Source: Candidatus Doudnabacteria bacterium (GTDB lineage Bacteria; Patescibacteriota; Doudnabacteria; UBA920). Taken from it: DNA of 25,368 nt. The notes under the pieces are model-generated. The model was not told the DNA's origin. It did no database searches and worked only from the letters and a program-made list of their open reading frames with translations. The stretch lies in NCBI GenBank assembly GCA_023245895.1, contig JAHFJJ010000001.1:71621-96988 (forward strand), read 5' to 3'. Both the position numbers and the translations under genes were made by a program. Each line of letters starts with the position of its first letter. Position 1 is the stretch's first letter. Positions 4,032-25,368 of the stretch are shown here, one piece after another.

Positions 4032-5315
4032 CTACTTAATTATTGCCATTTCCTTGCCCACCTCTTCAAAAGCCTTAACCGTACTGTCCATTTGCTCTTT
4101 GGTATGCGCTGATGATATTTGCACGCGAATCCTGGCCTTGCCCTTTGGCACTACAGGATAAGTGAACCCGCGGACGTAAATGCCTTTTTCAAAAAGCGCG
4201 CGGGCCATATTTGCCGCCAATTTTTCTTCAAACAACATCACGGGCGTAATCGCATGCTTACCGTCCCCTCCAAGTGTAAAGCCCAGCTTTTCCATTTCGC
4301 CCCTAAAATATTTGGTATTTTCTTCCAGCTGATTTCTATACTGCGCAAACTTGCTGTCAAAATTCTGTAATACATATAGGGCTGTGGCAGTAATCATAGG
4401 GGGCAAAGCATTGGAGAATAGTGTTGTACGAGAACGCTGATGGAGCACCTGGATTATTTCCTTCCTTCCGGCCGTAAAGCCTCCGCCCGCGCCGCCAAGG
4501 GCTTTTCCAAAAGTTGAAGTTAAAATATCTATCCTATCCATAACTCCGGCCTGTTCAATACTGCCACGGCCGTTCTTTCCCAGCACGCCGCTTGCATGGC
4601 TGTCGTCCACCATAACCAAAGCGCCGTACTTGTCGGCAAGGTCGCAAATTTCTTTGAGCTTGGCAGTAATGCCATCCATAGAAAACACGCCGTCTGTTGC
4701 AATCAATATCCGACGGGGCTTATATTTGCTCCCCTCTCCCCCCTTGTCCGCCATAGCTTTAGCGTCGGCGGATGGGAGAGGGGCCGGGGGTGAGGGTTTC
4801 TCTGGCCTCGATGTCGCCTCCTTTAACTGCCTTTCCAAGTCCCCCATATCCGAATTTTTAAACCTAAACCTTTCTGCCTTGCAAAGCCTAACGCCATCTA
4901 TAATAGAAGCATGATTCAACTCATCAGAAAAAATCGCATCCCCTTCCTTTAAAATAGTTTCAAACAAACCAGTGTTTGCGTCGAAACACGATGTATAACA
5001 AATGGCGTCTTCCTGCCCAAAAAACTTGGCAATTTCTTTTTCCAAATCTTTGTGCACAGTAAGCGTGCCGCAAATAAAACGTACGCTACCAGTACCATAC
5101 CCATATTTATCCAAAGCCTCTTTCGCGGCTCGGGTTAAATCATCGGATGATGCCAAACCTAGGTAGTTGTTGGCACAAAAGTTCAAAAGTGTCTTGTCGC
5201 CGACTTTAATTTCCGTCCCCTGTTTGCCTTCAATAACCCCTTCTTCTTTCCAGGTCCCTGCGTCCTTTATTTCTTTTAGTTCATCTTCAAATTGTTTTTG
5301 ATAGTTTGCGTACAT
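4032..5315 (-). CDS. kbl: 2-amino-3-ketobutyrate CoA ligase (glycine C-acetyltransferase)
   Basis: 427 aa. It aligns end to end with E. coli Kbl (NFCANNYLGL, VRFICGT, LIATDGVFSMDG, TFGKALGGAGGG, ARIRVQISSAHT). It carries a roughly 32-aa low-complexity insertion (RPEKPSPPAPLPSADAKAMADKGGEGSKYKP) that E. coli lacks. Confidence 0.92.
   Translation of the reverse strand: MYANYQKQFEDELKEIKDAGTWKEEGVIEGKQGTEIKVGDKTLLNFCANNYLGLASSDDLTRAAKEALDKYGYGTGSVRFICGTLTVHKDLEKEIAKFFGQEDAICYTSCFDANTGLFETILKEGDAIFSDELNHASIIDGVRLCKAERFRFKNSDMGDLERQLKEATSRPEKPSPPAPLPSADAKAMADKGGEGSKYKPRRILIATDGVFSMDGITAKLKEICDLADKYGALVMVDDSHASGVLGKNGRGSIEQAGVMDRIDILTSTFGKALGGAGGGFTAGRKEIIQVLHQRSRTTLFSNALPPMITATALYVLQNFDSKFAQYRNQLEENTKYFRGEMEKLGFTLGGDGKHAITPVMLFEEKLAANMARALFEKGIYVRGFTYPVVPKGKARIRVQISSAHTKEQMDSTVKAFEEVGKEMAIIK
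4729..4796. repeat. nested GC-rich palindromic element inserted in-frame in kbl
   Basis: The outer inverted repeat cccctctccc (4731-4740) / gggagagggg (4774-4783) is perfect. The inner pair tccgcc (4747-4752) / ggcgga (4767-4772) encloses the 14-nt loop atagctttagcgtc. The element coincides exactly with the extra peptide segment of Kbl. Confidence 0.55.
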
Positions 5316-5316
5316 A

Positions 5317-5949
5317 TTATTCCTTCATTTCCTGGACACGAAAAATATCTTCGTGCTCCAAGTCTATAAAACCTTCCCGGGTGAATACGGCTGCAATACC
5401 CTTTTCTTTTAATTCTCTAAAATATCTACTTAACAAACTGGCGGTTTCATTTTCTTCTTTATCAGGTGAAAGCAATTTTGCCTGACCTGATATTGTTGAC
5501 ATGAAATCTCTGGTTATTTTTTGCAGCAGCTCAATAGCTGAACTTTTTTGCTCCAAAGTTTGTGACTCCTTCAACTCAAAAATTGCCGGGATTGTGTAGC
5601 CGATACCCGGGGATTCGCCGGTAGCCATTTGCAGCTGATAAAATTTAAATTCCTGTAAAGTTTTTTTTCCAAGCCCGCTTTCCGGCTCTCCTGTTAGTGT
5701 TAAAGAAAAATCGCTTTCATGCTTACCCAACACTGTAAGTGAATCGTGGTTCCTGTATATGTCTTTGAGTACGGGCGGGCCCGCAGTACCGGCAACGAAC
5801 CCGCGGAATTCAATAAAAGAATCCGGGCCTGTCTTAAGGCTTAAGAGTTCTTCATATTGTTGTTTGCTTATGGTTGGGTAATTTTCCGCCTCCTCACTGA
5901 ACTCCCTGGAAATAGTCCGTTCAGCGCTATCTTGTTCAAACTCTTGCAT
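5317..5949 (-). CDS. hypothetical protein co-transcribed between the tdh-like gene and kbl
   Basis: 210-aa ORF with no recognisable motifs. Its stop is 1 nt from the kbl ATG and its start is 10 nt after the tdh stop. Confidence 0.55.
   Translation of the reverse strand: MQEFEQDSAERTISREFSEEAENYPTISKQQYEELLSLKTGPDSFIEFRGFVAGTAGPPVLKDIYRNHDSLTVLGKHESDFSLTLTGEPESGLGKKTLQEFKFYQLQMATGESPGIGYTIPAIFELKESQTLEQKSSAIELLQKITRDFMSTISGQAKLLSPDKEENETASLLSRYFRELKEKGIAAVFTREGFIDLEHEDIFRVQEMKE
5769..5789. repeat. GC-rich palindrome gtacgggcgggcccgcagtac inside the hypothetical gene
   Basis: A perfect 10-bp palindrome GCGGGCCCGC is flanked by inverted gtac. It encodes GTAGPPV and is far more GC-rich than the surrounding coding sequence. 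Confidence 0.35.
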
Positions 5950-5959
5950 ATAATTTAGG

Positions 5960-7219
5960 TTAAAATTGTATTAAAAACTTAGGGTGCTTTGCCATCATTT
6001 CCTCAAACCTTTCCTTAGTATACTCTTCTATAGGCAAAATTGTGTCTTGGCCTCTGTCTAAAATTACGTTGAATAATTTTTCCTGGACGCCGTTTTTCGT
6101 GTTTTCCATTAAAGAGCGGGTTGTTTCCCATGTCTGCCAAATTTGCCGGCCAATGACAGCGTGGAAAGTAAAACCGTTGACAATAAGGCGGTTAAAATCT
6201 TCAAACACAAAATCTCCCTGCTTAATCCCAAAAAGAACAACTTCCCCTCCCCTGCGCGTGGCATACAGGCAATTATTTACAGAGGAATTAAAACCGGCCA
6301 TTTCAAAACTAATGTCCACGCCCACGCCGTTGGTAATTTTTTTAATTTCGTCGGTGAGGGATGTGTCATGGATGTAGGGCAGGGCCTTGCCCTGCTTGTT
6401 GGGCAGGCCGGGGGCCTGCACTACATTATACAACGGGATGACATAATCTATTCCCAACTTCTTCGCCATATCCTGCGTAACCGGATTCGGGTCCACTCCT
6501 ATTATAGAGGAAGCGCCCATGCCTTTTAAAACAATGGTTAAAAACATGCCGATTGGGCCTAACCCAAATATGGCGACAGATTTTCCTTTAACATCCACTT
6601 TGCTTGCCGCGTGGACCGCGTTGCCAAACGGTTCCTGCATGGCCGCGACTTCGGGACGGATTTTGGAAGTGTCGGTCTTCCAGACAATATGGCTTGGAAC
6701 TTTTGCAAATTCCGCGAACCCGCCGTCATGGGAAATGCCTAATATCTTTTCATTGGTGCAGACTTCTTTTTGCCCACGCAAACACTGGTAGCACTTATTG
6801 CAAACCACGTGGGACTCGCAAGCCGCGAAGTCCCCGGGCTTTAAATTTTTTACTGCTGATCCGACTTTAATAATTTCGCCAAAAAATTCGTGGCCAATTA
6901 TGCGGTATGTTTTACTTGCTGAAACTGCGAGTGCGGCCGAAGCAGTCCCGTCTTGTTTCAAGATTGCTTCGCCTCCTGCACTCCTCGCAATTTCATCATC
7001 TTTATCTATGCTCCCCAAAATGACATCCCTAAAAGCCTGCCTGTTCCAAATGCCGCGGTCAGTCCCGCAAATGCCGGCGTAGTGGACTTTCATAATTACA
7101 TAATTGGCGTCACCAGGATTATTTTTTTCATCCAAAACCGGCTCGGGAATATTTACCAATTCAAACCCGTGCGATGTTTCCCAATCATATTTAGATTTAT
7201 CAAACACCAATGCTTTCAT
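5960..7219 (-). CDS. tdh: Zn-dependent medium-chain dehydrogenase, L-threonine 3-dehydrogenase-like
   Basis: 419 aa, with an MKAL start. It has the catalytic-Zn motif GICGTD and GHEFFGEI, the structural-Zn motif CESHVVCNKCYQC...C, the GLGPIG NAD motif and EPFGNAVHA. It is adjacent to kbl, as in tdh-kbl operons. It carries two insertions of roughly 35 aa and roughly 15 aa relative to E. coli Tdh. Confidence 0.72.
   Translation of the reverse strand: MKALVFDKSKYDWETSHGFELVNIPEPVLDEKNNPGDANYVIMKVHYAGICGTDRGIWNRQAFRDVILGSIDKDDEIARSAGGEAILKQDGTASAALAVSASKTYRIIGHEFFGEIIKVGSAVKNLKPGDFAACESHVVCNKCYQCLRGQKEVCTNEKILGISHDGGFAEFAKVPSHIVWKTDTSKIRPEVAAMQEPFGNAVHAASKVDVKGKSVAIFGLGPIGMFLTIVLKGMGASSIIGVDPNPVTQDMAKKLGIDYVIPLYNVVQAPGLPNKQGKALPYIHDTSLTDEIKKITNGVGVDISFEMAGFNSSVNNCLYATRRGGEVVLFGIKQGDFVFEDFNRLIVNGFTFHAVIGRQIWQTWETTRSLMENTKNGVQEKLFNVILDRGQDTILPIEEYTKERFEEMMAKHPKFLIQF
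6373..6425. repeat. nested GC-rich palindromic element inserted in-frame in the tdh-like gene
   Basis: The outer inverted repeat is tgtagggcagg / cctgcactaca. It encloses two 7-bp stem hairpins (gcagggc-ctt-gccctgc and gcaggcc-ggg-ggcctgc). It encodes VQAPGLPNKQGKALPY, which is absent from E. coli Tdh. Confidence 0.5.
6926..6989. repeat. second nested GC-rich palindromic element inserted in-frame in the tdh-like gene
   Basis: The outer pair is tgcgagtgc / gcactcctcgca and the inner pair is ggccgaagcag / ttgcttcgcc. The central palindrome is cttgtttcaag. The element encodes part of the roughly 35-aa insertion between the CGTD and GHE motifs. Confidence 0.5.
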
Positions 7220-7757: not shown

Positions 7758-9572
7758 TTACTCAACTGTAACGCTCTTAGCCAAATTCCTTGGTCTATCG
7801 ACATCCCGGCCTAATGCTACTGATACATGATAGGCAAATAACTGGAGCGGGATGGTATTTAAAAGCGGTTCAAGCAGTTCCATAGTTTTTGGCAAATAAA
7901 TAATTTCATCAGCAACCTCTTTTGCCTCTTCATCGCCTTGTGTCGCGATAATTAAAGTTCTGGCCCCGCGGGCGCGGACTTCCTGGATGCTACTTTTCAT
8001 TTTTTCATATAACTGGTTTTTGGTCAAAATAGCCACCACCGGTACGTCTTTGCTTACTAACGCAAGCGGCCCGTGCTTTAGCGCGCCGCCAGCCAAGCCT
8101 TCGGCGTGGATGTAGGAAATTTCCTCAAGCTTCAAAGCGCCTTCCAAAGCCACGGGGTAATTTACGCCCCTGCCAATGAATAAAATATTTTTGTAATCTT
8201 TATAGATGTTGGCAATTTTTTTAATTTCTTCGTTCTGCTTTAAAATTTCATTCATCTTTTCGCTAATTTCCAAAAGCGATTGCAACATCCTCTGTCCTGT
8301 GGCCAGTGAGGTATGCTTAAGGCGTCCAAATTGTAAAGCGTACAATAGTAGAACCGCTGTCATGTTTGTATAGGCTTTAGTAGATGCCACCGCAAGCTCC
8401 GGGCCGGCGTGGATGTAAGTGCCGGCGCCGGTCTCGCGCGCAATGGTTGAGCCCACAACATTTACAATTCCCCTAACCTGCCCGCCCTTTCTTTTGGCTT
8501 CGCGCGCGGCCATTAGCGTGTCGGCGGTTTCTCCGGATTGCGAAATTACAAAAACCAAAGTGTCTTTGTTTACAATCGGGTCGCGGTAGCGGAATTCGGA
8601 TGAAAAATCCACTTCGGTGGGGATGTTCGCCAAACGTTCAAAAGCGTATTTGCCAATAAGCCCGGCATGCCTGGCCGTGCCTTCGGCAATTATCATTATC
8701 CTTTTGACTTTCCGCATTTCTTCTTCGGTCAAATTAAGCCCGCCCATTTTTGCCGTGCCTTCTTCCATGTCTATCCTGCCCCTAAGCGCGTCTTCAAAAA
8801 CTTCTTTCTGGTCAAAAATTTCCTTGAGCATAAAATTCTCAAAACCGCCTTTTTGCGCCTTAGCCTGGTCCCAGTCTATTTCCGTAATATTTTTGCTGAT
8901 GACTTCATTACGCAAGTTAAAAATTTTCAATTCAGAATTGATGGATGCAATCTCACCGTCATCTAAAAAGGTCACGCGCTTGGTAAACGGCAGCATTGGC
9001 GTTACATCGGACGCGATATAAAATTCATTTTCACCAATACCCACGGCCAAAGGACTGCCTAAACGCGCGGCGACCAGCTGGTGCGGATGGTCTGCGTGCA
9101 TAACTACAAGCCCGTATGTACCCCGAATTCCGGGTAAGGCATCTTTTACCGCCTGCACTAAATCGCCTTTATAATTTTGGTAAATCCATTTGGCCAAAAC
9201 CTCCGTGTCGGTTTGCGATTCGTAATTTTTGTCTTGGATTTTTTCTTTCAACTCCCGGTAATTTTCAATTATGCCATTATGGACAATAGCCATTCTGCCA
9301 TCCACAATATGCGGATGTGCATTAAATTCTGTCACTCCCCCGTGGGTTGCCCAGCGTGTGTGCGCGACGCCAATTGTTCCCGGCAACTTCTTGCCTTCCA
9401 GTTTTTGCGATAGCTTGTCCACCTTGCCCACTTCCCTAACGCGATCGATTTTCCCATTATCCAAAACCGCCACGCCAGCGCTGTCGTAGCCTCTATATTC
9501 CAAATCGCGCAATCCTTGTAAAAGGATAGGCAAAACCTGTTTATTTCCAACGTATCCGACTATACCGCACAT
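7758..9572 (-). CDS. glmS: glutamine--fructose-6-phosphate aminotransferase (isomerising)
   Basis: 604 aa. It has the N-terminal MCGIVGYVG Ntn-amidotransferase start with the nucleophile Cys2, two SIS domains, and the C-terminal ...VTVE tail. It is full length relative to E. coli GlmS (609 aa). Confidence 0.97.
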   Translation of the reverse strand: MCGIVGYVGNKQVLPILLQGLRDLEYRGYDSAGVAVLDNGKIDRVREVGKVDKLSQKLEGKKLPGTIGVAHTRWATHGGVTEFNAHPHIVDGRMAIVHNGIIENYRELKEKIQDKNYESQTDTEVLAKWIYQNYKGDLVQAVKDALPGIRGTYGLVVMHADHPHQLVAARLGSPLAVGIGENEFYIASDVTPMLPFTKRVTFLDDGEIASINSELKIFNLRNEVISKNITEIDWDQAKAQKGGFENFMLKEIFDQKEVFEDALRGRIDMEEGTAKMGGLNLTEEEMRKVKRIMIIAEGTARHAGLIGKYAFERLANIPTEVDFSSEFRYRDPIVNKDTLVFVISQSGETADTLMAAREAKRKGGQVRGIVNVVGSTIARETGAGTYIHAGPELAVASTKAYTNMTAVLLLYALQFGRLKHTSLATGQRMLQSLLEISEKMNEILKQNEEIKKIANIYKDYKNILFIGRGVNYPVALEGALKLEEISYIHAEGLAGGALKHGPLALVSKDVPVVAILTKNQLYEKMKSSIQEVRARGARTLIIATQGDEEAKEVADEIIYLPKTMELLEPLLNTIPLQLFAYHVSVALGRDVDRPRNLAKSVTVE

Positions 9573-9581
9573 ACTAGTTAT

Positions 9582-10298
9582 TTAAGTTAATTTTAAAGTT
9601 TTAAATGCCTCGTAAACAATTCTTTGTGAGGAAATTTTTTCTAATATTAATATCTTTTCATCCATAAGCGGCACCGGGCCGACTGGATCAACAAAATCTT
9701 TCAAACTAAATTCACCTAGTGATATAGATTTAATATTATTATACTGTTCGTGATCCTTCCCCCCTACAAAACCAACGATTCTACTTTGATATTGATGCTT
9801 CCCAATGTGTACCGAAGCTTCTCGCGCTATCACTTCGGTATCTACAAAGTCTTTTTTCCTTATTTCGCTTTCAGGAACGGCTACATTGATGCCTGACTCA
9901 GTCTGTAAGTTTATTATGGCCACAGCTCCGGGAGAATCAAAATCTTGCCTGTTCATTTTCTTGAAAGCATAAGAAGCAGCATACATAGCTCCAACATATA
10001 GTGAATTCAGTAGAACCTTTTTATCTTCAGGTCTTTCAAAAAAAGTTGTGACCATTAATGATCTGTCCTCTGTAGTATCTGTTTCCAAAGCTTTTATATG
10101 ATTAATTGCTCTATTTGAAGCTCCATGAAACCCAAAAAACGGAATAGGCCCTTTTTCCATAATTTGTAAAAAAAGACTGTCATTTGTTTCCGCAATTTCC
10201 CTAAGTCTGTCAAGTTCTAAATTATTAATTTCCTCAACTGAAGGAAAATTAAAATCGGTTGGATTTTTTAAATCACTATAACCAATCCTTTCGGGCAT
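9582..10298 (-). CDS. hypothetical protein between the TrmB regulator and glmS
   Basis: 238-aa ORF with no recognisable motif. The gap to glmS is 9 nt and its start overlaps the TrmB stop region, so it is probably in the same operon. Confidence 0.55.
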   Translation of the reverse strand: MPERIGYSDLKNPTDFNFPSVEEINNLELDRLREIAETNDSLFLQIMEKGPIPFFGFHGASNRAINHIKALETDTTEDRSLMVTTFFERPEDKKVLLNSLYVGAMYAASYAFKKMNRQDFDSPGAVAIINLQTESGINVAVPESEIRKKDFVDTEVIAREASVHIGKHQYQSRIVGFVGGKDHEQYNNIKSISLGEFSLKDFVDPVGPVPLMDEKILILEKISSQRIVYEAFKTLKLT

Positions 10299-10301
10299 AA
10301 A

Positions 10302-11054
10302 TTATAATTTATTCCAATTAAATTCAAAAACTAACTTCTGCGTTTCATAAATTGCCTCGTTCTGGATTACCACGCCAACGGGATTTTCTTTTTCATCCAG
10401 CCCCAAATGCGCCACTTTGCCGGCATAAATTATTTCGTGCGTGGATTTTACGTCTTTGCCGCCGGTAGGCATTTTTTTCCTTTCGTCCAGCCCGGCCAAC
10501 TGCCCGCCTTCGCCCAAAGAAATAATTTTCACGCTGATTTTTTTTGCAATCCTCTTTTTACTAAAATCAGGAATGCCTTCGTAAACGTTTTTCCTGTCTT
10601 TTACGGTGGAGGATGAGTATAAATAATAAGTCTTATCGGTTATTTTAGCAACTTCTTCCAAGACGTCTTCCAAAATTAACTTGATCCCCTTCGCGCCTTC
10701 GTATAATTTAACCGTTGGCTTGCCGCCCTGCTTTTCAAATAAGGTTTTAATGAGCGGTAAACTTTGTTCAATATGCCCCCGCACCTCATCCAAGTCTTCT
10801 TTTTTTTGGTCAATGGCGCTTAATAACTTTTCCGGAGGTTCGGCAATAAAATACTGTTTGGATTCCTTATTATAGTAAGAAACAATTCCGGTGCTCATCA
10901 GCGACTTTAAAATATCATAAGCCGTCCCGCGGTTAACCTTGGACTTGGCCGATATATCCCTAACCGACGAAGGTCCAAGTTCTATCAATGCCAAATATAC
11001 AGAGATTTCCTTTTCCGATAACCCAAAATTCTTTAAAATTACCTGGATTTCCAT
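10302..11054 (-). CDS. TrmB-family (sugar-responsive) transcriptional regulator
   Basis: It has an N-terminal winged-HTH (LSEKEISVYLALIELGPSSVRDISAKSKVNRGTAYDILKSLMSTGIV) and a roughly 170-aa C-terminal TrmB-like effector domain. Confidence 0.78.
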   Translation of the reverse strand: MEIQVILKNFGLSEKEISVYLALIELGPSSVRDISAKSKVNRGTAYDILKSLMSTGIVSYYNKESKQYFIAEPPEKLLSAIDQKKEDLDEVRGHIEQSLPLIKTLFEKQGGKPTVKLYEGAKGIKLILEDVLEEVAKITDKTYYLYSSSTVKDRKNVYEGIPDFSKKRIAKKISVKIISLGEGGQLAGLDERKKMPTGGKDVKSTHEIIYAGKVAHLGLDEKENPVGVVIQNEAIYETQKLVFEFNWNKL

Positions 11055-12629: not shown

Positions 12630-15600
12630 GTGAGAAACAATTCTAAAATAAAACACAATTTCAGAGCCGGGACTTTTAAAGTTTCATATAGTCCGTTTTT
12701 TAGATTAGGCCTGTTTTTAATGGTCTTTGTTATGCTGTTTCATATCAATCCACAGCAGGCCCAAGCAGCCAATTACACGTTTAGCCAATCCAGCTGGAGC
12801 GGTGGAACAACATCAAGCACAATGGTCCACCCGACTAACGAAACCGGCTGGACGCAGTATTCCACCAGTACCAATATTACCGCGGGCTCAACTATTACTC
12901 TCAATTCAAGCTTTGGAGCAGGCGGCTGGTACTCGACCGGAGGTACTTGGACTTACAGGAAAAAGATAACCATAGACCACACTAAAGTCAGCGGATCGAG
13001 CGCGCTGACTAATTTCCCAATGTTGTTTAACGTAACAGATTCGGATTTAAAATACACAGGCAGCGGAGGCGGGGTCGGCACTACATCTGGAAATGATATT
13101 TTATTTACTTCGTCAGACGGAACAACGCTTTTGAATTATGAAATAGAAAGCTACGCTTCCACTACCGGAGCTACCGCCGCCTGGGTTAATATTCCTTCCC
13201 TCTCCCCGACAACCGACACGACTATTTATATGTACTACGGTAATGCTTCAGCGGCGGCGGAAAGCGCCGGCAACATTACCGGCACTTGGGATTCCAATTT
13301 TAAAGGCGTATGGCACTTTCCCAGCACCACGACCTTGGGCGCTAATGATTCAACCAGCAACGCCAATAATGGATCTTCAACAACTACTACCGCCTCTACC
13401 GGCAAGATTGCTGGAAGCGCGAGTTTTAACGGCTCGGCTTTTATTTCCGTCGGCACCGGCTCGTCTTTGAATATTACTTCCCAGCCCGTTACTGTTTCAT
13501 CCTGGGTCAAACCAAGCAGCCAGCCTCCGACTTTCCAGATGATCTTTGATAAAGATGCTTCATACGCTTTTTTTCTCGACAGCAACAGCCCCCCAACAAA
13601 TTCTCTGGGGTTTAGGTCTAACATTAACGGGTCGATTGTTTACGCAAACAATAATATTATAACCACAGGCAGCTGGCAGCATGTAGCGGCAGTTTACGCT
13701 TCAAACACAGTTTCTTTTTACGTTAACGGCAGCCTGGCTTCAACCACAGCACTTTCAAACGCCTTTTCGTCTAACTCAAACGCGGCGGAAATTGGAAGGA
13801 GATTTACTAACGAACAGTTCTTTAATGGTGATATGGATGAAGTTAGGGTATCCTCTGCCGCCCGTTCCGCCGACTGGATTGCCACGGAATACGCCAACCA
13901 AAATTCGCCGTCAACTTTTCTTTCCGAAGCCTCGGCCGTAACTAATGTAAAAATGCTGGTTTCTTCGCCTTACGATTCCGGCAGTTCTAATAATATTTTA
14001 AACCAGGTTACCTGGACTGAAGATTCAACTTTGCCGGCCAATACTTCCGTGACCCTGGCCCTGCGCACGGGCAGTTCCACAACCACACTGGCCGCGGCAA
14101 GCTGGACCAATATTGCCACCAGCACGCCTTCCACCCTGACTTCCAACTGCAGCAAGGCTTCCGCGACAATTACCTGCAGCGCCGGCGCCATTGCCTCTTC
14201 TCTCAAAGACGGGTCCGGCGACGAATGGTTCCAGTACGCCGTAATTCTTAACAGCAGCGACGGAGTCTACACGCCCACAATTAGCGCGGTATCCGTGCAG
14301 TATGTGGTCAATGGCCCGCCGGATTTTAATTCCAACTACCCAACCGCCAGCGCCGGCGGAGTCTATGCTTACCAAAACGCGACCACCACAGACTCAAGTT
14401 TTGGCAAGGTAATAATCCAATACAGCGTTAGGGATACGGACTCAACCTCGGGCAACAGCACGCCCGGATATGTTACGCCTTCTTTCCAGTACAACATTGG
14501 CGGCAGCTGGACCAGCATAACTTCGGGCTACCTGGCATCTGGCGATTTGAACAACAAAGCCGTAAGCGAGTCCAGCTACACGACTTACCAGGCGACCTGG
14601 GACGCGAAAAGCCAAATCCCTACCAATTACCTGGCGACCGCGCAGGTAAGGGTGACTGTGAATGATAATGAGCTTGCGGGCAACACTGCCACACAAGCCT
14701 CAGCTAACTTTACCTTAGATACAACAAACCCTTCGGCCAGTATTCGTTTAGATGCCAGCAGCAACATAATTTATTCCACCTCAACCGACAGCAGCATTGT
14801 TTCATACTTGCTATCCAACAATTCCACCGGCACGCCCGATTCCTTAAATGCCATAAGCGGCATTTGGCAGTCTGCAAGCAGCACTTCGGTATCAACCTCT
14901 ACTGCCTGGACTTTTGCTTCAACCACTTATCCCACAGTCTACTTCCAGGCCCGCGACGCATACAATAACGGCGCCAGTACTACCGCGGTAGCCCCTTACG
15001 CGCCGACCAACATGGACATAAAAGATATTAGCAATACGGCTACAGGCGTGTACAGGGAATTTATTTCCTGGGGGGTTTATTCCGCAACTTCAAGCGCGGC
15101 CTTTTCCAAATATGAAATTTACCGTTCCACGGATGCCAGCAGCTATTCCCTGCTTAGCACAATTATTGACTCCTCCCTTAATTACTACGCCGACTCGGCG
15201 GTGGCCACTAGCAGCACTTATTACTACAAAATAAGAACGGTAGATACCGACACTGACAACTCCCCCTATTCTTCGGTTGTCAGCGATAAACCGGACGGCC
15301 AGGGCGGGACAGACATAACTGCCCCAACCATAAGCTCGGTAACCGTGGCGCAAACCCAGTCAACCTGGGCAACCATTACCTGGACCACGGATGAGCTGTC
15401 CAACTCCACGGTAGGATATTCCACGACTGCGGGCAGCTGGACATCAAGCCAGTCCTCAACCTCATTTTTGCTTAGCCATTCGGTGACAGTCTCCGGGCTT
15501 TTGCCAAATACCACCTACTACTTTAGGGTCCAGTCCTCGGACATTGTGGGCAACACGGCTACTGACAACAACGGCGGCAACGGATACAGTTTTACAACTG

Positions 15601-20968: not shown

Positions 20969-20976
20969 ATCATATA

Positions 20977-21094
20977 GCGGGCAGCCGCCTACTTTTGCGC
21001 ATACATGCGTATGACTATCATTGGCCCGTGCGTGTTTTACTACTGAGTTCGGGATGGGATCAGGTAGGACCACGCTGGAAATGCCACCCTCGTC
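20977..21094 (-). rRNA. rrf: 5S ribosomal RNA
   Basis: The minus strand reads ...GUGGUCCUACCUGAUCCCAUCCCGAACUCAGUAGUAAAACACGCA..., matching the conserved 5S core (GGUCCCACCUGACCCCAUGCCGAACUCAGAAGUGAAAC). Terminal helix I pairs GAGGGUGGC with GCUGCCCGC. Confidence 0.8.
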
Positions 21095-21717: not shown

Positions 21718-22569
21718 CACATATTCTTCTGTCACCAGAAGTGCAGACTATATCTTCATCCTATCTTATACCTTAGGCTCCTGGGCCATAGTATTTTTTT
21801 ATGATAGGTGTCGGCGTATTATAGAAATAGTAGAAAGTATAAAGTTGAAAGTTTAAAGTAACTGCAATTGCAGTCCTTTTCACTTTCTACTTTTAACTTT
21901 TAACTACCTTCCATCTCCTCTTTCGAGTCAGTCGTTACGGGGTCAAACCTAAAATCTTAAATAATTCAAGTCCGGTTTTCTTTTTCCGAGTTGCGTAGTT
22001 ATTATTTTGAATTATTGTTATACAGCTTATAATTTTCCTGAGTTCAGATTGCGTAAAATTAGCAATCTTTTTCCCTTCCAGAATTCCGGCTGCTTTATAC
22101 AAAGCCGCAGCTTGTTGCTTCTTAAAACGTATAAATGGAATTAAATCTTTAAGAATGTTTTTAATTTGAGTCACCCCGTTTATACGAAGTTCGCTCATTC
22201 CGTCATTTCTGCGGGATAAGTACCCAATGCCTAAAACTTTCTTAATCCAGAAAAGTTCTGCTTCATGGCGGCTATCCTGATAAAAACAGATAGTGCACAT
22301 AAAACGAACTTTTTTCTTTCCATCTTTGCGCTTTTTGATTTGCAACATTAAGCTGCCGTCTCCGTCTAAAAAGCCGGCAATATAAGCTAAATCAATTTTA
22401 GATCGACTTCCCACGGTATTGTCTTAATATTCTTGGTCCTCAAGTAAATTGTACCATAACTGAAGAACCGTTACAATTATGGTTATCAACGGATGCAAAA
22501 TATATTAAGATTTCACCGTTATTAGCCGAATTTTCAAGGCAGATTACTCTGCCAAGTAGCAAACCCTTT
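21718..22569 (-). other. intron (group I-like, 852 nt) inserted in the 23S sarcin-ricin loop (E. coli U2656/A2657 equivalent)
   Basis: The 5' exon ends ...GCGCAUCCCUAGU (22570). The 3' exon starts ACGAGAGGACCGGGAU (21717). Joined, they restore the universal SRL CCUAGUACGAGAGGACC closed by the AUCCC/GGGAU stem. The intron starts with A after an exonic U and ends in G. Confidence 0.7.
21935..22414 (-). CDS. LAGLIDADG homing endonuclease (single-motif) encoded in the SRL intron
   Basis: It has the LAYIAGFLDGDGS motif near its N-terminus. It is 159 aa with a GTG start, and lies entirely within the intron. Confidence 0.85.
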   Translation of the reverse strand: MGSRSKIDLAYIAGFLDGDGSLMLQIKKRKDGKKKVRFMCTICFYQDSRHEAELFWIKKVLGIGYLSRRNDGMSELRINGVTQIKNILKDLIPFIRFKKQQAAALYKAAGILEGKKIANFTQSELRKIISCITIIQNNNYATRKKKTGLELFKILGLTP

Positions 22570-22699
22570 ACTAGGGATGCGCCCAATCAAGTTTCGAACA
22601 CCCACAGCAGATAAGGACCAAACTGTCTCACGACGTTTTGAACCCAGCTCGCGTACCACTTTAATATGCGAACAGCATAACCCTTGGGAGCTTCTTCAC

Positions 22700-22738
<39 letters not shown>

Positions 22739-23308
22739 TCTCGTCGATGTGGACTCTTGGAGAGGATCAGCCTGTTATCCCTAGAGTAACTTTTATCCGT
22801 TGGGCTTTGCGTCTTCCACTCGAACGCATCGGATCACTAACTTCCACTTTCGTGCCTGCGCGGGTCGCCGCCCTTGCAGTCAAGCATGCTTATGCGTTTG
22901 CACTATCAGCATGATTTCCATCCATGCCTAGCATACCTTAATAAACGCCTCCGTTACCATTTAGGAGGCAACCGCCCCAGTTAAACTACCCACGAGCCAC
23001 TGTCCCAAAGTAGGTTAGACTTTGGTTAGAATTAATATTTTTACAGAGTGGTATTTCACCTTTTGCCTCCATTTGAGCTGGCGCCCAAACTTCAAAGGCT
23101 CCCACCTAGGCTAAACAATAAAAGCATTAATTCAATGACACGCTATAGTAAAGCTTCATAGGGTCTTTCCGTCTTGCTGCGGGTAGACGGCATCTTTACC
23201 GCCACTGTAAGTTCATCGGAATGTTCGTTAAGACAGTTCTCTGCTCGTTATGCCATTCGTGCGGGTCGCAACTTACGCGACAAGGAATTTCGCTACCATA
23301 GGACAGTT

Positions 23309-24044
23309 CATAATGTTAGCTTCATGTTTCCATGAAGTTCAGACTATATCATTCCATCAATTGGATGGATTCGGCGTTTAGTCGTTGAGGGTTTTTACTA
23401 AATGATTCTTTAAAATTTGTTAAATTATGCTTTCGAGTTCTACCTTTTCCTTCATTTAAGTCCTCACGAAGTTTTACTATTTCTAGCAACCCTTCCTGAT
23501 TTAAATGTTGGCTTGCAAAAACTAATCTTGCAATTTTAGAGAATAACGAATAGTTTCTTTTTTTACTAGCGGACAAGAAACCGAACCGGTCAAAGAAAGG
23601 AATTATTTTTTCTTTGAGTGCTGTATGATTTTGGACAATATATTGATGCACGCCATCTTTCCTATGGTCAATGCGACCACAGCCTAAATGATGCTTCAAC
23701 AAAGCAAGTACGGTAATGTCTTTTTGAGCAACATTAAACGTTAATATTACTTGCCATAATACTTTACTGTCGTTTCGTTTACGAAGGGAAACATTAAAGC
23801 TTCCTTCTCCGTCTACAAAACCTGCAAAGTAATTTCCAATTTCAACAGGAATTTGCTTTAACCAATTTTGATCCATAAAGTTTCCTTCTGAATCTTTTAG
23901 TAAATCTTCCCTGCGGATTGACTGTATCTTGTAAATTTTTACTGTCAATTTAATGACGAGTATTACAAGCTTTAAGCACATCAAAGTCCTTTGTGTGCAC
24001 AGTTATTCCCGCAAATAGCCAAATTTTATAACTACAACATGTTC
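23309..24044 (-). other. group I-like intron (736 nt) in 23S helix 69 at the L1917-equivalent site
   Basis: The 5' exon ends ...GGCAGUAACUAU (U at 24045). The 3' exon starts AACUGUCCUAUGGUAGCGAAAUUCC (23308). Joined, they give the H69 loop UAACUAUAAC. The intron ends in G. The junction can slide by 3-4 nt because of the local repeat gaac...gaac. Confidence 0.65.
23349..23984 (-). CDS. LAGLIDADG homing endonuclease (single-motif) encoded in the L1917 intron
   Basis: It has the NYFAGFVDGEGSF motif. The likely true start is the internal Met at 23876 (MDQNWLKQIPVEIGNYFAGF...). The longer N-terminal extension probably reads through intron core sequence. Confidence 0.85.
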   Translation of the reverse strand: MMCLKLVILVIKLTVKIYKIQSIRREDLLKDSEGNFMDQNWLKQIPVEIGNYFAGFVDGEGSFNVSLRKRNDSKVLWQVILTFNVAQKDITVLALLKHHLGCGRIDHRKDGVHQYIVQNHTALKEKIIPFFDRFGFLSASKKRNYSLFSKIARLVFASQHLNQEGLLEIVKLREDLNEGKGRTRKHNLTNFKESFSKNPQRLNAESIQLME

Positions 24045-24814
24045 ATAGTTACTGCCGGCGTTCATCAGGGCTTGGCCGATCGGCTTGCGCCAACCGGTTT
24101 AACCTTCTGACACTGGCCAGGCATCAGCCCGTATACATCAGCTTGCGCTTTAGCACGGACCTAAGTTTTTGGTAAACAGTCGGAGGAGATCTTTCGCTGC
24201 GGCCCTGTACCATTCATTCGCTTACGCGAATTCAGGTGCAGGGCAAGGTATATACCGAAGGTACACCTGCTTTTTTGCCGAGTTCCTTAACGAACATTGG
24301 TCCGGACGCCTTGGGATTCTCTCCCCATCCACCTGTGTCGGTTTACGGTACGAGCACTTTATAACATGACTTCGACGCTTTTCTTGACACCTTGATTCAC
24401 ACTAATCTCCGTTGCCAGATTTTTTTATGCTTTCGAGATTACAATCGCATCAACCATCTCTTGCGAGGTAAGCTGATGTAATATAGGAACTCCGGATTTA
24501 CCTAAAGTTCCACCCTACGAGCACAACAACGCCAATAGTCAGATGACGCTAATGTTATCATGATGCGTCCCGCCTAAGATAATTATAAAGCGGTTATGGA
24601 ATATCAACCATATTTTCCATCGGGTGAACCCCTTGGGGCCCACTCTTAGGATCGACTAACCCAGGGACGACGATCGTTGCCCTGGAAACCTTGGATATTC
24701 GGCGAAGAGGATTCTCACCTCTATATATATTACTTATTCCAACATTCTTACTTGTACACTGTCCACGGCCGCTTACGCATACCGCTTCAGCCTGTGTACA
24801 ACACTCCTCTACCA

Positions 24815-24927
24815 CTTATGCGAAGCATAAGAACAATTAACTTTTAACAATTAACAATTGACCGGCTGCAGACTGCAGTAGTTAATCGTTAATCGTTAAT
24901 TGTTACCAGTTTTTATGCTTCGCATAA
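24815..24927 (-). repeat. 113-nt hairpin expansion segment in 23S (replacing the short helix after the GTPase-associated centre), built of tandem 7-10-nt repeats
   Basis: The base palindromes are cttatgcgaagcataag and tttatgcttcgcataaa. Tandem aacaattaac copies pair with tandem gttaatc copies around the central palindrome ctgcagactgcag. E. coli has only GCGGCAGCGACGCUUAUGCGUUGUUGGGUAG at this position. Confidence 0.5.
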
Positions 24928-25010
24928 ATCCACGTCTTCGGCACCTAGCTTAGCCCCTATATATTGTCGGCGCAGGATCGCTTGACCAGTGAGCTGTTAC
25001 GCTTTCTTTA

Positions 25011-25047
<37 letters not shown>

Positions 25048-25368
25048 GGGCAATCCCACATCCTTTGCACTATAGCTAGGATTTGGGGGCCTTAGACGGT
25101 GGTGTGGATTCTTCTCCATTTGTCTCGTGAAGCTTAGACCTCACGGACTGACTGCCAATTTCTTGACCTTTAGAATTCGGAGTTTGGTTGGAGCCTACCG
25201 CTTGCGCAGCAGGTTTCCATTCAGTGCTCTACCTCTAAAGGGAACAATTGACGCTAGCCCTAAAGCTATTTCGAGGAGAACCAGCTATCACCCGGTTCGA
25301 TTGGAATTTCTCCCCTACGCACAGCTCATCCCCTATTTTTGCAGCAATAGTGGGTTCGGACCTCCCGT

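Follow-up and report, generated by a model that had tools for sequence, protein, structure and literature searches.

An in-frame palindrome in a threonine dehydrogenase-like gene of Candidatus Doudnabacteria is very probably an intragenic GTAG-tagged REP doublet

Results

The palindrome in the tdh-like gene

The sequence analyzed here is a stretch of 25,368 nt from a Candidatus Doudnabacteria contig (JAHFJJ010000001.1), referred to below as the window, and the subject is a GC-rich palindrome inside a gene for an L-threonine 3-dehydrogenase (TDH)-like protein (tdh). The gene encodes a zinc-dependent dehydrogenase of the medium-chain dehydrogenase/reductase (MDR) type and is located two genes upstream of a bona fide kbl. 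The best matches of its product in the PDB were the archaeal TDHs (E = 2e-56). With the Tdh models of NCBIfam the open reading frame (ORF) scored below the cutoffs, partly because of the insertions that it carries. The coordinates of the features are collected in Table 1, and sequences compared with the window carry L numbers.

An earlier note, made from the DNA sequence alone, had described a GC-rich nested palindrome at positions 6373-6425 that encloses two perfect 7-bp hairpins, and the sequence is exactly as described. On the plus strand it reads TGTAG-G-GCAGGGC-CTT-GCCCTGC-TTGTTGG-GCAGGCC-GGG-GGCCTGC-A-CTACA. TGTAG (6373-6377) pairs with CTACA (6421-6425), and this outer stem becomes ATGTAG/CTACAT when positions 6372 and 6426 are added. 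The two hairpin units differ by a compensatory swap of C-G to G-C in the stem, a swap which is also present in other members of the family described below.

The folding and the GC profile bore out the earlier description. In the RNA fold of the coding strand (−30.3 kcal/mol, z = −3.5), both hairpins are nested inside the outer stem; the minimum-energy form of the DNA is one long hairpin (−20.2 kcal/mol, z = −4.5), and none of 200 shuffled sequences folded as well. The GC content peaks at 78% (40-nt window) at the palindrome, compared with 46% for the gene and 44% for the whole window, which makes it one of the two strongest GC islands of the window. Perfect GC-rich 7-bp hairpins occur five times in the window, with 0.77 expected, and two of the five lie within the palindrome. 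The pattern GCAGGSCNNNGSCCTGC was matched three times, with 0.29 expected, every time at the palindrome. A search of Rfam gave no match at the gathering score, the single hit having E = 0.4 and 19 bits versus a gathering score of 79. An assembly artefact was ruled out, since a contig of 3.9 kb assembled from another sample (L081) carries the identical element and is 99.97% identical to the window.

Table 1. Features of the tdh locus and hairpins inside related transposase-like genes. REP, repetitive extragenic palindromic sequence; REPIN, inverted REP doublet; RAYT, REP-associated tyrosine transposase.
Feature	Sequence	Position	Strand	Remarks
Zinc-dependent L-threonine 3-dehydrogenase-like MDR dehydrogenase (host gene)	Window	5960..7219	-	419 aa, intact
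kbl	Window	4032-5315	-	580 bits vs cutoff 460
Candidate REP doublet (REPIN-like)	Window	6374..6424		51 nt = 17 codons; V266-Y282, VVQAPGLPNKQGKALPY on minus strand; tags outward
Unit 1	Window	6374..6395	+	GTAG-G-GCAGGGC-CTT-GCCCTGC; perfect 7-bp stem, 3-nt loop
Parts of unit 1	Window	6374-6377; 6379-6385; 6389-6395	+	GTAG; GCAGGGC; GCCCTGC (loop CTT)
Spacer TTGTTGG	Window	6396..6402		Coding strand CCAACAA; other copies CAAAAA, CTAATGA and similar
Unit 2	Window	6403..6424	-	Minus-strand reading GTAG-T-GCAGGCC-CCC-GGCCTGC; exact fit to the metagenome search pattern
Parts of hairpin 2	Window	6403-6409; 6413-6419; 6421-6424	+	GCAGGCC; GGCCTGC (loop GGG); CTAC
Widest extent by family consensus	Window	6372..6426		AT-GTAG ... 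CTAC-AT; takes in outer stem TGTAG/CTACA
Second palindromic in-frame insert of tdh (site 1)	Window	6921..6994		Peptide EIARSAGGEAILKQDGTASAALAVS; different repeat family, no GTAG tag
Internal hairpin of RAYT-like gene	L123	793-814
Internal hairpin of RAYT-like gene	L202	7045-7066
Internal hairpin of RAYT-like gene	L203	10246-10267
Internal hairpin of RAYT-like gene	L205	3271-3298
Internal hairpin of RAYT-like gene	L208	10262-10288

Location of the insert in a variable loop

Homologues of the Tdh-like protein are 374 to 478 aa long and come from Candidatus Doudnabacteria and from further Patescibacteria. In an alignment of 32 of them the length variation was confined to two hot spots, site 1 after 'SIDxE' and site 2 between 'DYVIPL' and 'KPYAHN'. 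The palindrome occupies site 2, which is hypervariable in both length and sequence and at which archaeal TDH structures show a gap of 18-20 aa. The short forms of the clade (L005, L004, L206, and others) have 7 codons at this site versus 17 in the window. Compared with the short form, the net gain is about 10 aa, not 17, because the terminal CTAC of the element overlies the conserved host codons for Pro-Tyr. The roughly 15 extra residues given in the earlier note are thus of the right order of magnitude, and its view of an inserted palindromic element that adds a peptide with the frame preserved agrees with the position of the element, in frame in the ORF, and with the comparison of homologues. 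The insert, which reads VVQAxGLP, is specific to this lineage, being present in none of 119 other Tdh homologues, and the outcome that the earlier note would have taken as a refutation, a peptide conserved across divergent orthologues over non-palindromic DNA, was not found, the short forms of 9-10 aa being encoded by unstructured, AT-rich DNA. The long site-2 inserts of L001, L002, L006, L010, and L017 are GC-rich relative to their own genes and have fold z scores of −3.5 to −7. The inserts of different lineages differ in sequence, suggesting that several element families entered the site-2 loop independently.

In an AlphaFold model, residues 266-278 have pLDDT values below 50 and lie between a confidently modelled strand (259-262) and helix (286-295) of the NAD-binding domain. 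The model, built from 32 sequences, is mediocre (mean pLDDT of 67) and was used for the loop assignment alone; it is consistent with site 2 being a flexible surface loop.

At the right end of the element the window reads CCC TAC ATC CAT GAC, and the orthologues read CCY TAY GCN CAY RAY, certain of them having CCC TAC, and with it CTAC, natively. The consensus of the element family is CAC TAC (HY) versus CCC TAC (PY) in the window copy. Either the element took the place of the host's Pro-Tyr codons and selection then adjusted it, or a pre-existing CTAC served as one end of the element; that the host C-CTAC was the target of insertion is speculation. A codon-level comparison with L206, L207, L005, L004, and others showed where the loop expands, the divergence being too great for it to define the point of insertion or a duplication. 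An intein, an intron, and a programmed frameshift were rejected, because the ORF is uninterrupted, the addition amounts to only 17 codons, and splicing motifs are absent.

The contigs of two other assemblies, L204 and L020, break at site 2. The closest contig of the genome-contig scan, L020 (77% identity), ends at its position 10804, just before the site. L204, a 9.7-kb contig assembled from a different sample, shows 100% identity to the window along about 6.1 kb, apart from 56 mismatches that all lie in its first 223 nt (L204 1-223, corresponding to window 6364-6142), beside site 2, where L204 ends. Either recombination between strains produced this tract, or it is an assembly chimera formed at the repeat.

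A dispersed family of hairpin units

The tdh element belongs to a dispersed family with the unit (AT)GTAG-N-GCAGGSC-NNN-GSCCTGC and consists of two such units in inverted orientation with GTAG outward. A scan of metagenome contigs with the 19-base pattern GTAGTGCAGGCCNNNGGCCTGC gave at least 120 stretches carrying the exact unit, and among the matches listed were 52 low-GC contigs (0.39-0.53 GC) similar to the window in composition. Viral contigs scanned with the unit pattern gave no match and thus no sign of carriage by phages. In some of these low-GC, Patescibacteria-like contigs the unit forms doublets with the architecture of the tdh element. The intergenic doublets of L085 and L118 (GTAGTGCAGGGCATTGCCCTGC-TTTTT-GGCAGGCCGATGGCCTGCACTAC) are about 88% identical to that of tdh, and a doublet at the stop codon of a transposase-like gene in L123 matches it at 43 of 51 positions, as counted by hand from the scan outputs; further examples are carried by L143, L105, L114, L104, L144, and L136. 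L118 has five units in 7.3 kb. In L001, a related metagenome-assembled genome (MAG) whose Tdh is 63% identical, the unit ATGTAGTGCAGGCCCTCGGCCTGCC stands in the glmS-tdh spacer upstream of tdh and is identical to the right unit of the tdh element at 24 of 25 positions. A repeat search of the window itself recovered the one doublet and no second copy of its family.

The hairpins are conserved within the family. GTAG and CTAC are kept in the partner units of all 11 aligned members, 96% of the cells in the partner hairpins pair, and two of seven pairs show double compensatory changes, with loops varying freely. The stems occur as GCAGGCC, GCAGGGC, and GCAAGCC. By our own reading of the matches listed, AT precedes GTAG in most low-GC copies and A follows CTAC in about 9 of 11 doublets.

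The unit GTAGTGCAGGCC-loop-GGCCTGC also occurs in soil contigs of 60-70% GC (such as L089, L096, L102, L147, L176, and L198), together with a partner GCGGACC...GGTCCGC-ACTAC and sometimes in tandem arrays (L147 and L188). These units may stem from a REP family of other phyla related to the present one, or from convergence.

Association with RAYT-like genes

The family is associated with genes resembling those of the RAYTs. An ORF in L123 encodes a protein of 161-167 aa with the HUH and Tyr motifs. It was located with a possibly inexact E. coli YafM/TnpA_REP sequence as a probe, and was then tested independently against Pfam, NCBIfam, and the PDB. It matched Y1_Tnp of Pfam above the cutoff (33.9 bits), scored E = 7e-19 with the NCBIfam model 'REP-associated tyrosine transposase' versus E = 2e-3 with IS200, and its only match in the PDB was 4er8, the E. 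coli TnpA_REP. The gene has a single unit just upstream, and a full doublet starts at its stop codon, which is the TAG of GTAG. RAYT-like homologues with the same flanking units occur in L202 and in L203, the latter from the MAG of the tdh orthologue L014. At E <= 1e-10 the L123 protein has 508 homologues, named RayT and labelled Patescibacteria or Parcubacteria by their sources. A search of the window for a RAYT gene found none, the unit-flanked RAYT-like genes being known from the related contigs L123, L202, and L203.

In contigs of the Patescibacteria type, RAYT-like genes of three subfamilies contain an in-frame GTAG...CTAC hairpin in the loop that directly follows the HUH motif, at a place where the TnpA_REP of E. 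coli shows a gap of 8 aa. The internal stem GCAGGCC (peptide QAxGLHY) is of the same family as the REPs that flank the genes concerned. The other subfamilies have the stems GGGACAGGTC (VGTGRDLSL) and GGGGCGGAT (VGADIIRPY), the second of which also occurs between genes in L086 (700-722). The subfamily of L205 has the internal hairpin and no flanking REPs within about 60 nt, so that the rule of an internal hairpin equal to the flanking REP is shown for only one subfamily. The hairpin after the HUH motif could be a hot spot, a self-recognition signal, or an autoregulatory feature.

Copies in other genes

Besides the tdh element, in-frame copies within genes are common in this family. An ORF was counted as containing a unit if its open frame was at least 450 nt long and extended at least 120 nt to each side; by this measure 26-27 of about 60 exact units of the low-GC contigs, among the matches listed, were inside long ORFs. 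Nearly all of them read VVQAxGLP or, in the opposite orientation, xQAxGLHY, and the frame that reads the TAG of GTAG is necessarily absent. All 10 host ORFs tested were real genes, namely those for PyrF, PurD, UvrD, PurL, BipA (twice), AspRS, GyrB, an AddA-like helicase-nuclease, and a GT4 glycosyltransferase. The glycosyltransferase of L118 carries two in-frame doublets of 66 nt that read VVQATGLP...KQAGGLHY, in the same frame as in tdh. The doublets within ORFs measured 51, 51, 57, 57, 66, and 66 nt, plus one of 52 nt, and the intergenic ones 50, 50, 51, 51, and 51 nt. Random 22-nt windows of the same contigs were inside ORFs in 55% of cases versus 44% for the units (p = 0.12), a crude measure, given that these contigs are short and were themselves found by way of the element; it suggests little avoidance of coding DNA by the family.

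Some of these copies are shared by orthologues. In PyrF, a unit read VVQAxGLP occupies the same site in L103 (1111-1132), L151 (822-843), and L189 (379-400), and an orthologous protein in L138, L162, and L201 shares a unit read in a second frame, RSAGHRPA. Shared units of this kind differ only in the loop triplet. The shared PyrF sites suggest that intragenic units persist through speciation and are inherited vertically for some time.

Discussion

We consider it highly probable that the segment in tdh is a GTAG-tagged REP doublet in an intragenic position, that is, a non-autonomous element of the REPIN type. Short GC-rich hairpins with a GTAG tag, often in inverted dimers, are known as GTAG-type REPs, and their inverted doublets as REPINs (PMC3733652, PMC3116915). 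The tdh element has GTAG at one end and CTAC at the other. Its 22-nt units with their 7-bp stems and 3-nt loops lie within the range of REPs, which are palindromes of 20-40 bp with stems of 5-13 bp and a short loop, and, as in REPINs, the inverted units are separated by a short spacer (7 nt) and form a single long hairpin. REPs are usually extragenic, and the tdh copy, which is in frame inside the gene, is not. On our analysis the intragenic location is a departure from the usual habit of REPs that does not exclude membership, as exceptions are documented (PMC3733652).

Di Nocera et al. described in 2013 families of GTAG REPs, their dimers, REP-flanked RAYT genes ('REPtrons'), and stop codons derived from GTAG (PMC3733652). 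Compared with the known GTAG REP/REPIN/RAYT systems (PMC2817692, PMC3116915, PMC3479197, PMC3733652), the present family shares the 5' GTAG, the 7-bp GC stem with a short variable loop, the inverted pair able to form one long hairpin, the copies dispersed over contigs, and, in related contigs, the transposase genes flanked by units and the use of GTAG as a stop codon, and its Y1/HUH protein fits the RAYT model better than that of IS200. It differs in that the tdh copy is intragenic, presumably translated, and only 51 nt long, that the hosts are low-GC members of the candidate phyla radiation (CPR)/Patescibacteria with tiny intergenic spaces, and that, by the crude test given above, its units lie in ORFs about as often as random positions do.

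REPs wholly inside ORFs have been reported from Opitutus terrae, Thauera, and Rickettsia, intragenic dimers encoding 20-30 aa (PMC3733652). In those cases, which include Rickettsia conorii, single units and dimers of GTAG or CGTC type are likewise found inside ORFs whose function is known, genes for replication or repair are frequent among the hosts (in the present family, UvrD, GyrB, and the AddA-like protein), and the copies are thought to be neutral insertions in loops (PMC3733652). The phylum and the unit sequence are different here, and a cognate RAYT-like gene is identified which itself carries an in-frame unit. The 2013 listing of GTAG REPs was confined to Proteobacteria, Cyanobacteria, Chloroflexi, and the PVC group (PMC3733652), and within the literature searched no paper was found that links REP, REPIN, or RAYT with CPR/Patescibacteria. 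Intragenic GTAG REP dimers have been known since 2013; notable here are the phylum of the hosts and how weakly the family avoids coding DNA.

The Rickettsia palindromic elements (RPEs) are the classical example of palindromic DNA inserted in frame; they are restricted to Rickettsia, and RPE-1 measures about 100-150 bp. Ogata et al. reportedly described them in 2000 as in-frame palindromic selfish DNA in housekeeping genes. The tdh element behaves similarly in that it is palindromic, probably selfish, presumably adds a surface segment, and keeps a consistent reading frame. The likeness is one of behavior only, as there is no sequence similarity, and assignment to any of RPE-1 to RPE-8 was rejected because the tag is GTAG, not CGTC, and the hosts are Doudnabacteria/Patescibacteria. 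A CGTC tag marks the short RPEs, which lack a transposase of their own (PMC3733652). [quoted passage not shown] They are likewise small non-autonomous palindromic repeats occasionally found in frame inside genes; the tdh element has none of their length, terminal-repeat, or target-duplication features, being 51-55 nt long with two hairpins, no flanking direct repeat, and no long terminal inverted repeats, and a MITE was therefore rejected.

The following course of events may be proposed. The doublet would have been copied or moved into tdh by a RAYT that worked in trans on the hairpin of folded single-stranded DNA, after the split from the relatives whose proteins are now 77-79% identical. The copy would have survived because its 51 nt make 17 codons and keep the frame; the frame GTA-GTG-CAG-GCC has no stop, and the TAG-reading frame of GTAG would truncate the protein. 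The site was presumably permissive, as a strand-to-helix loop of the NAD-binding domain that already varied in length, and the terminal C-CTAC may supply or overlap the invariant Pro-Tyr codons. The 17 residues would be translated as a disordered surface loop. A function for the host need not be assumed, and any effect of the mRNA hairpin of −30 kcal/mol on translation or decay might be a by-product.

Several points tell against the assignment to a REP doublet. There is no clean empty site, the nearest orthologues being 77-79% identical with a loop that is unalignable base by base, and the window holds neither a second family copy nor a RAYT gene. The L123 protein, at 68 bits, is under the NCBIfam equivalog cutoff of 80. 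The metagenome matches were picked with a pattern derived from the element, and part of the high-GC matches are plain coding sequence. The doublet of 51 nt is shorter than classical REPINs. Finally, the RAYT-driven transposition of REPINs is itself inferred in the literature, and no insertion event was observed in tdh.

An origin of the palindrome on the spot, without mobility, by template switching, hairpin-templated repair, or slippage, would make its likeness to the other copies a convergence on GC-rich hairpins. Such an origin would suit a site that is a hot spot with differing palindromes in many lineages, two hairpins that resemble a diverged duplication of each other, and a target-site duplication or empty site that is not demonstrable. 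We nevertheless regard it as very unlikely, since the element shows 84-88% identity over 51 nt to unrelated loci, including the unpaired GTAG tags, the position of the spacer, and the flanking A/T; convergence would not reproduce unpaired positions, and the unit is also present in ten different genes and around transposase genes. The occurrence of the same sequence in unrelated proteins and in intergenic DNA also speaks against the proposal that the segment is a selected feature of tdh, either an mRNA element for ribosome pausing or decay or a peptide loop, perhaps recruited from a repeat. REPs in E. coli affect mRNA stability. In favor of the proposal, both stems pair perfectly and the mRNA folds strongly, the frame is kept together with the invariant Tyr282, an A-to-C change turns the HY of the family into PY, and the in-frame PyrF units persist across the related genomes L103, L151, and L189. 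However, every other homologue lacks the insert, the peptide region is predicted to be disordered, and what the element itself requires would account equally well for the conservation of the stems. We think that a selected function is improbable.

Homologous recombination or gene conversion could also have brought in the loop from another allele or species, with the element as a passenger of a mosaic tdh segment. The differences concentrated by site 2 in L204, which is otherwise identical to the window, and the end of L020 just before the site would fit such an event. However, the end of L204 may be a chimera assembled from strains that occur together, the insert was found in none of the other homologues, and recombination only shifts the question to the donor allele, in which the insertion of the element would still be needed. 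We give this explanation only a slim chance. The reading of the tdh segment as an inserted REP doublet is the one we prefer.

If this reading is true, the odd feature of tdh and its neighbors could be put down to ordinary selfish DNA and not to a novel device for coding or regulation. As regards annotation, CPR proteins with odd GC-rich insertions, such as VVQAxGLP...QAxGLHY, would be the products of intact genes with translated REPs, and assemblies would be prone to break at such REP-bearing sites. The family would be a tractable case, its unit being short, its RAYT-like gene identifiable, and its in-frame copies many, and could be used to study the entry of hairpin elements into coding DNA, the frames and loops in which they are tolerated, and whether genome streamlining drives elements into genes. 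We tentatively put forward the wider possibility that the RAYT-REP systems of CPR/Patescibacteria colonize coding sequence nearly as freely as spacers, intergenic space being very scarce in these genomes, and are a main source of the hypervariable, GC-rich, low-complexity loops of housekeeping enzymes (both sites of tdh, kbl, glmS, gyrB, uvrD, aspS, and others), and that the hairpin inside the RAYT genes, apparently of the REP type of each subfamily, serves self-recognition or autoregulation. In-frame palindromic selfish DNA like that of Rickettsia would then have a counterpart whose transposase can be identified.

Other palindromic inserts and neighboring features

The palindromic insert at site 1 of tdh has 30 nt that are 100% identical to an in-frame insert, EIARSASDEAIPAKHPGTASAALAVS, in the glmS of L001 (8105-8182), and the glmS of the window (7758-9572, minus strand) is without an insert of this type. 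The earlier note had seen the same pattern in tdh and kbl. This was right as to the general kind, a GC-rich in-frame palindrome; the insert in kbl belongs to a different repeat family. That insert (window 4731-4822) has the core CTTGTCCGCCATAGCTTTAGCG (peptide ...SADAKAMADK...) and represents a third dispersed family; the core recurs in L001 at 9843-9864, 10894-10915, and 13853-13867, that is, in an intergenic spacer, at site 2 of tdh, and in a third place. In L206, a relative without the inserts, Kbl has 401 aa versus 427 aa in the window, and Tdh 386 aa versus 419 aa. The glmS-tdh spacer of L001 (9840-9990) is a mosaic of at least three families of palindromic elements side by side, with a core of the kbl type, a hairpin of the GGGACAnnnTGTCCC type, a REP unit of the tdh type, and a GTAGCGCGCCGAT...ATCGGC unit.

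Between tdh and kbl the window contains an ORF of 210 aa (5317-5949) with no significant family match and a weak, sub-cutoff Pfam hit only. It is absent from L206, in which tdh and kbl are adjacent, and a version of 208 aa is present in L207. The 23S rRNA gene (22523-25368, minus strand), which is cut by the end of the window, spans about 685 nt beyond the model positions covered and includes an ORF for a LAGLIDADG protein (23349-23984). Introns are often seen in the rRNA genes of CPR bacteria, and the extra sequence is probably one of them. A second LAGLIDADG ORF (21935-22414) lies between the 3' end of the 23S rRNA gene and the 5S rRNA gene (20976-21091).

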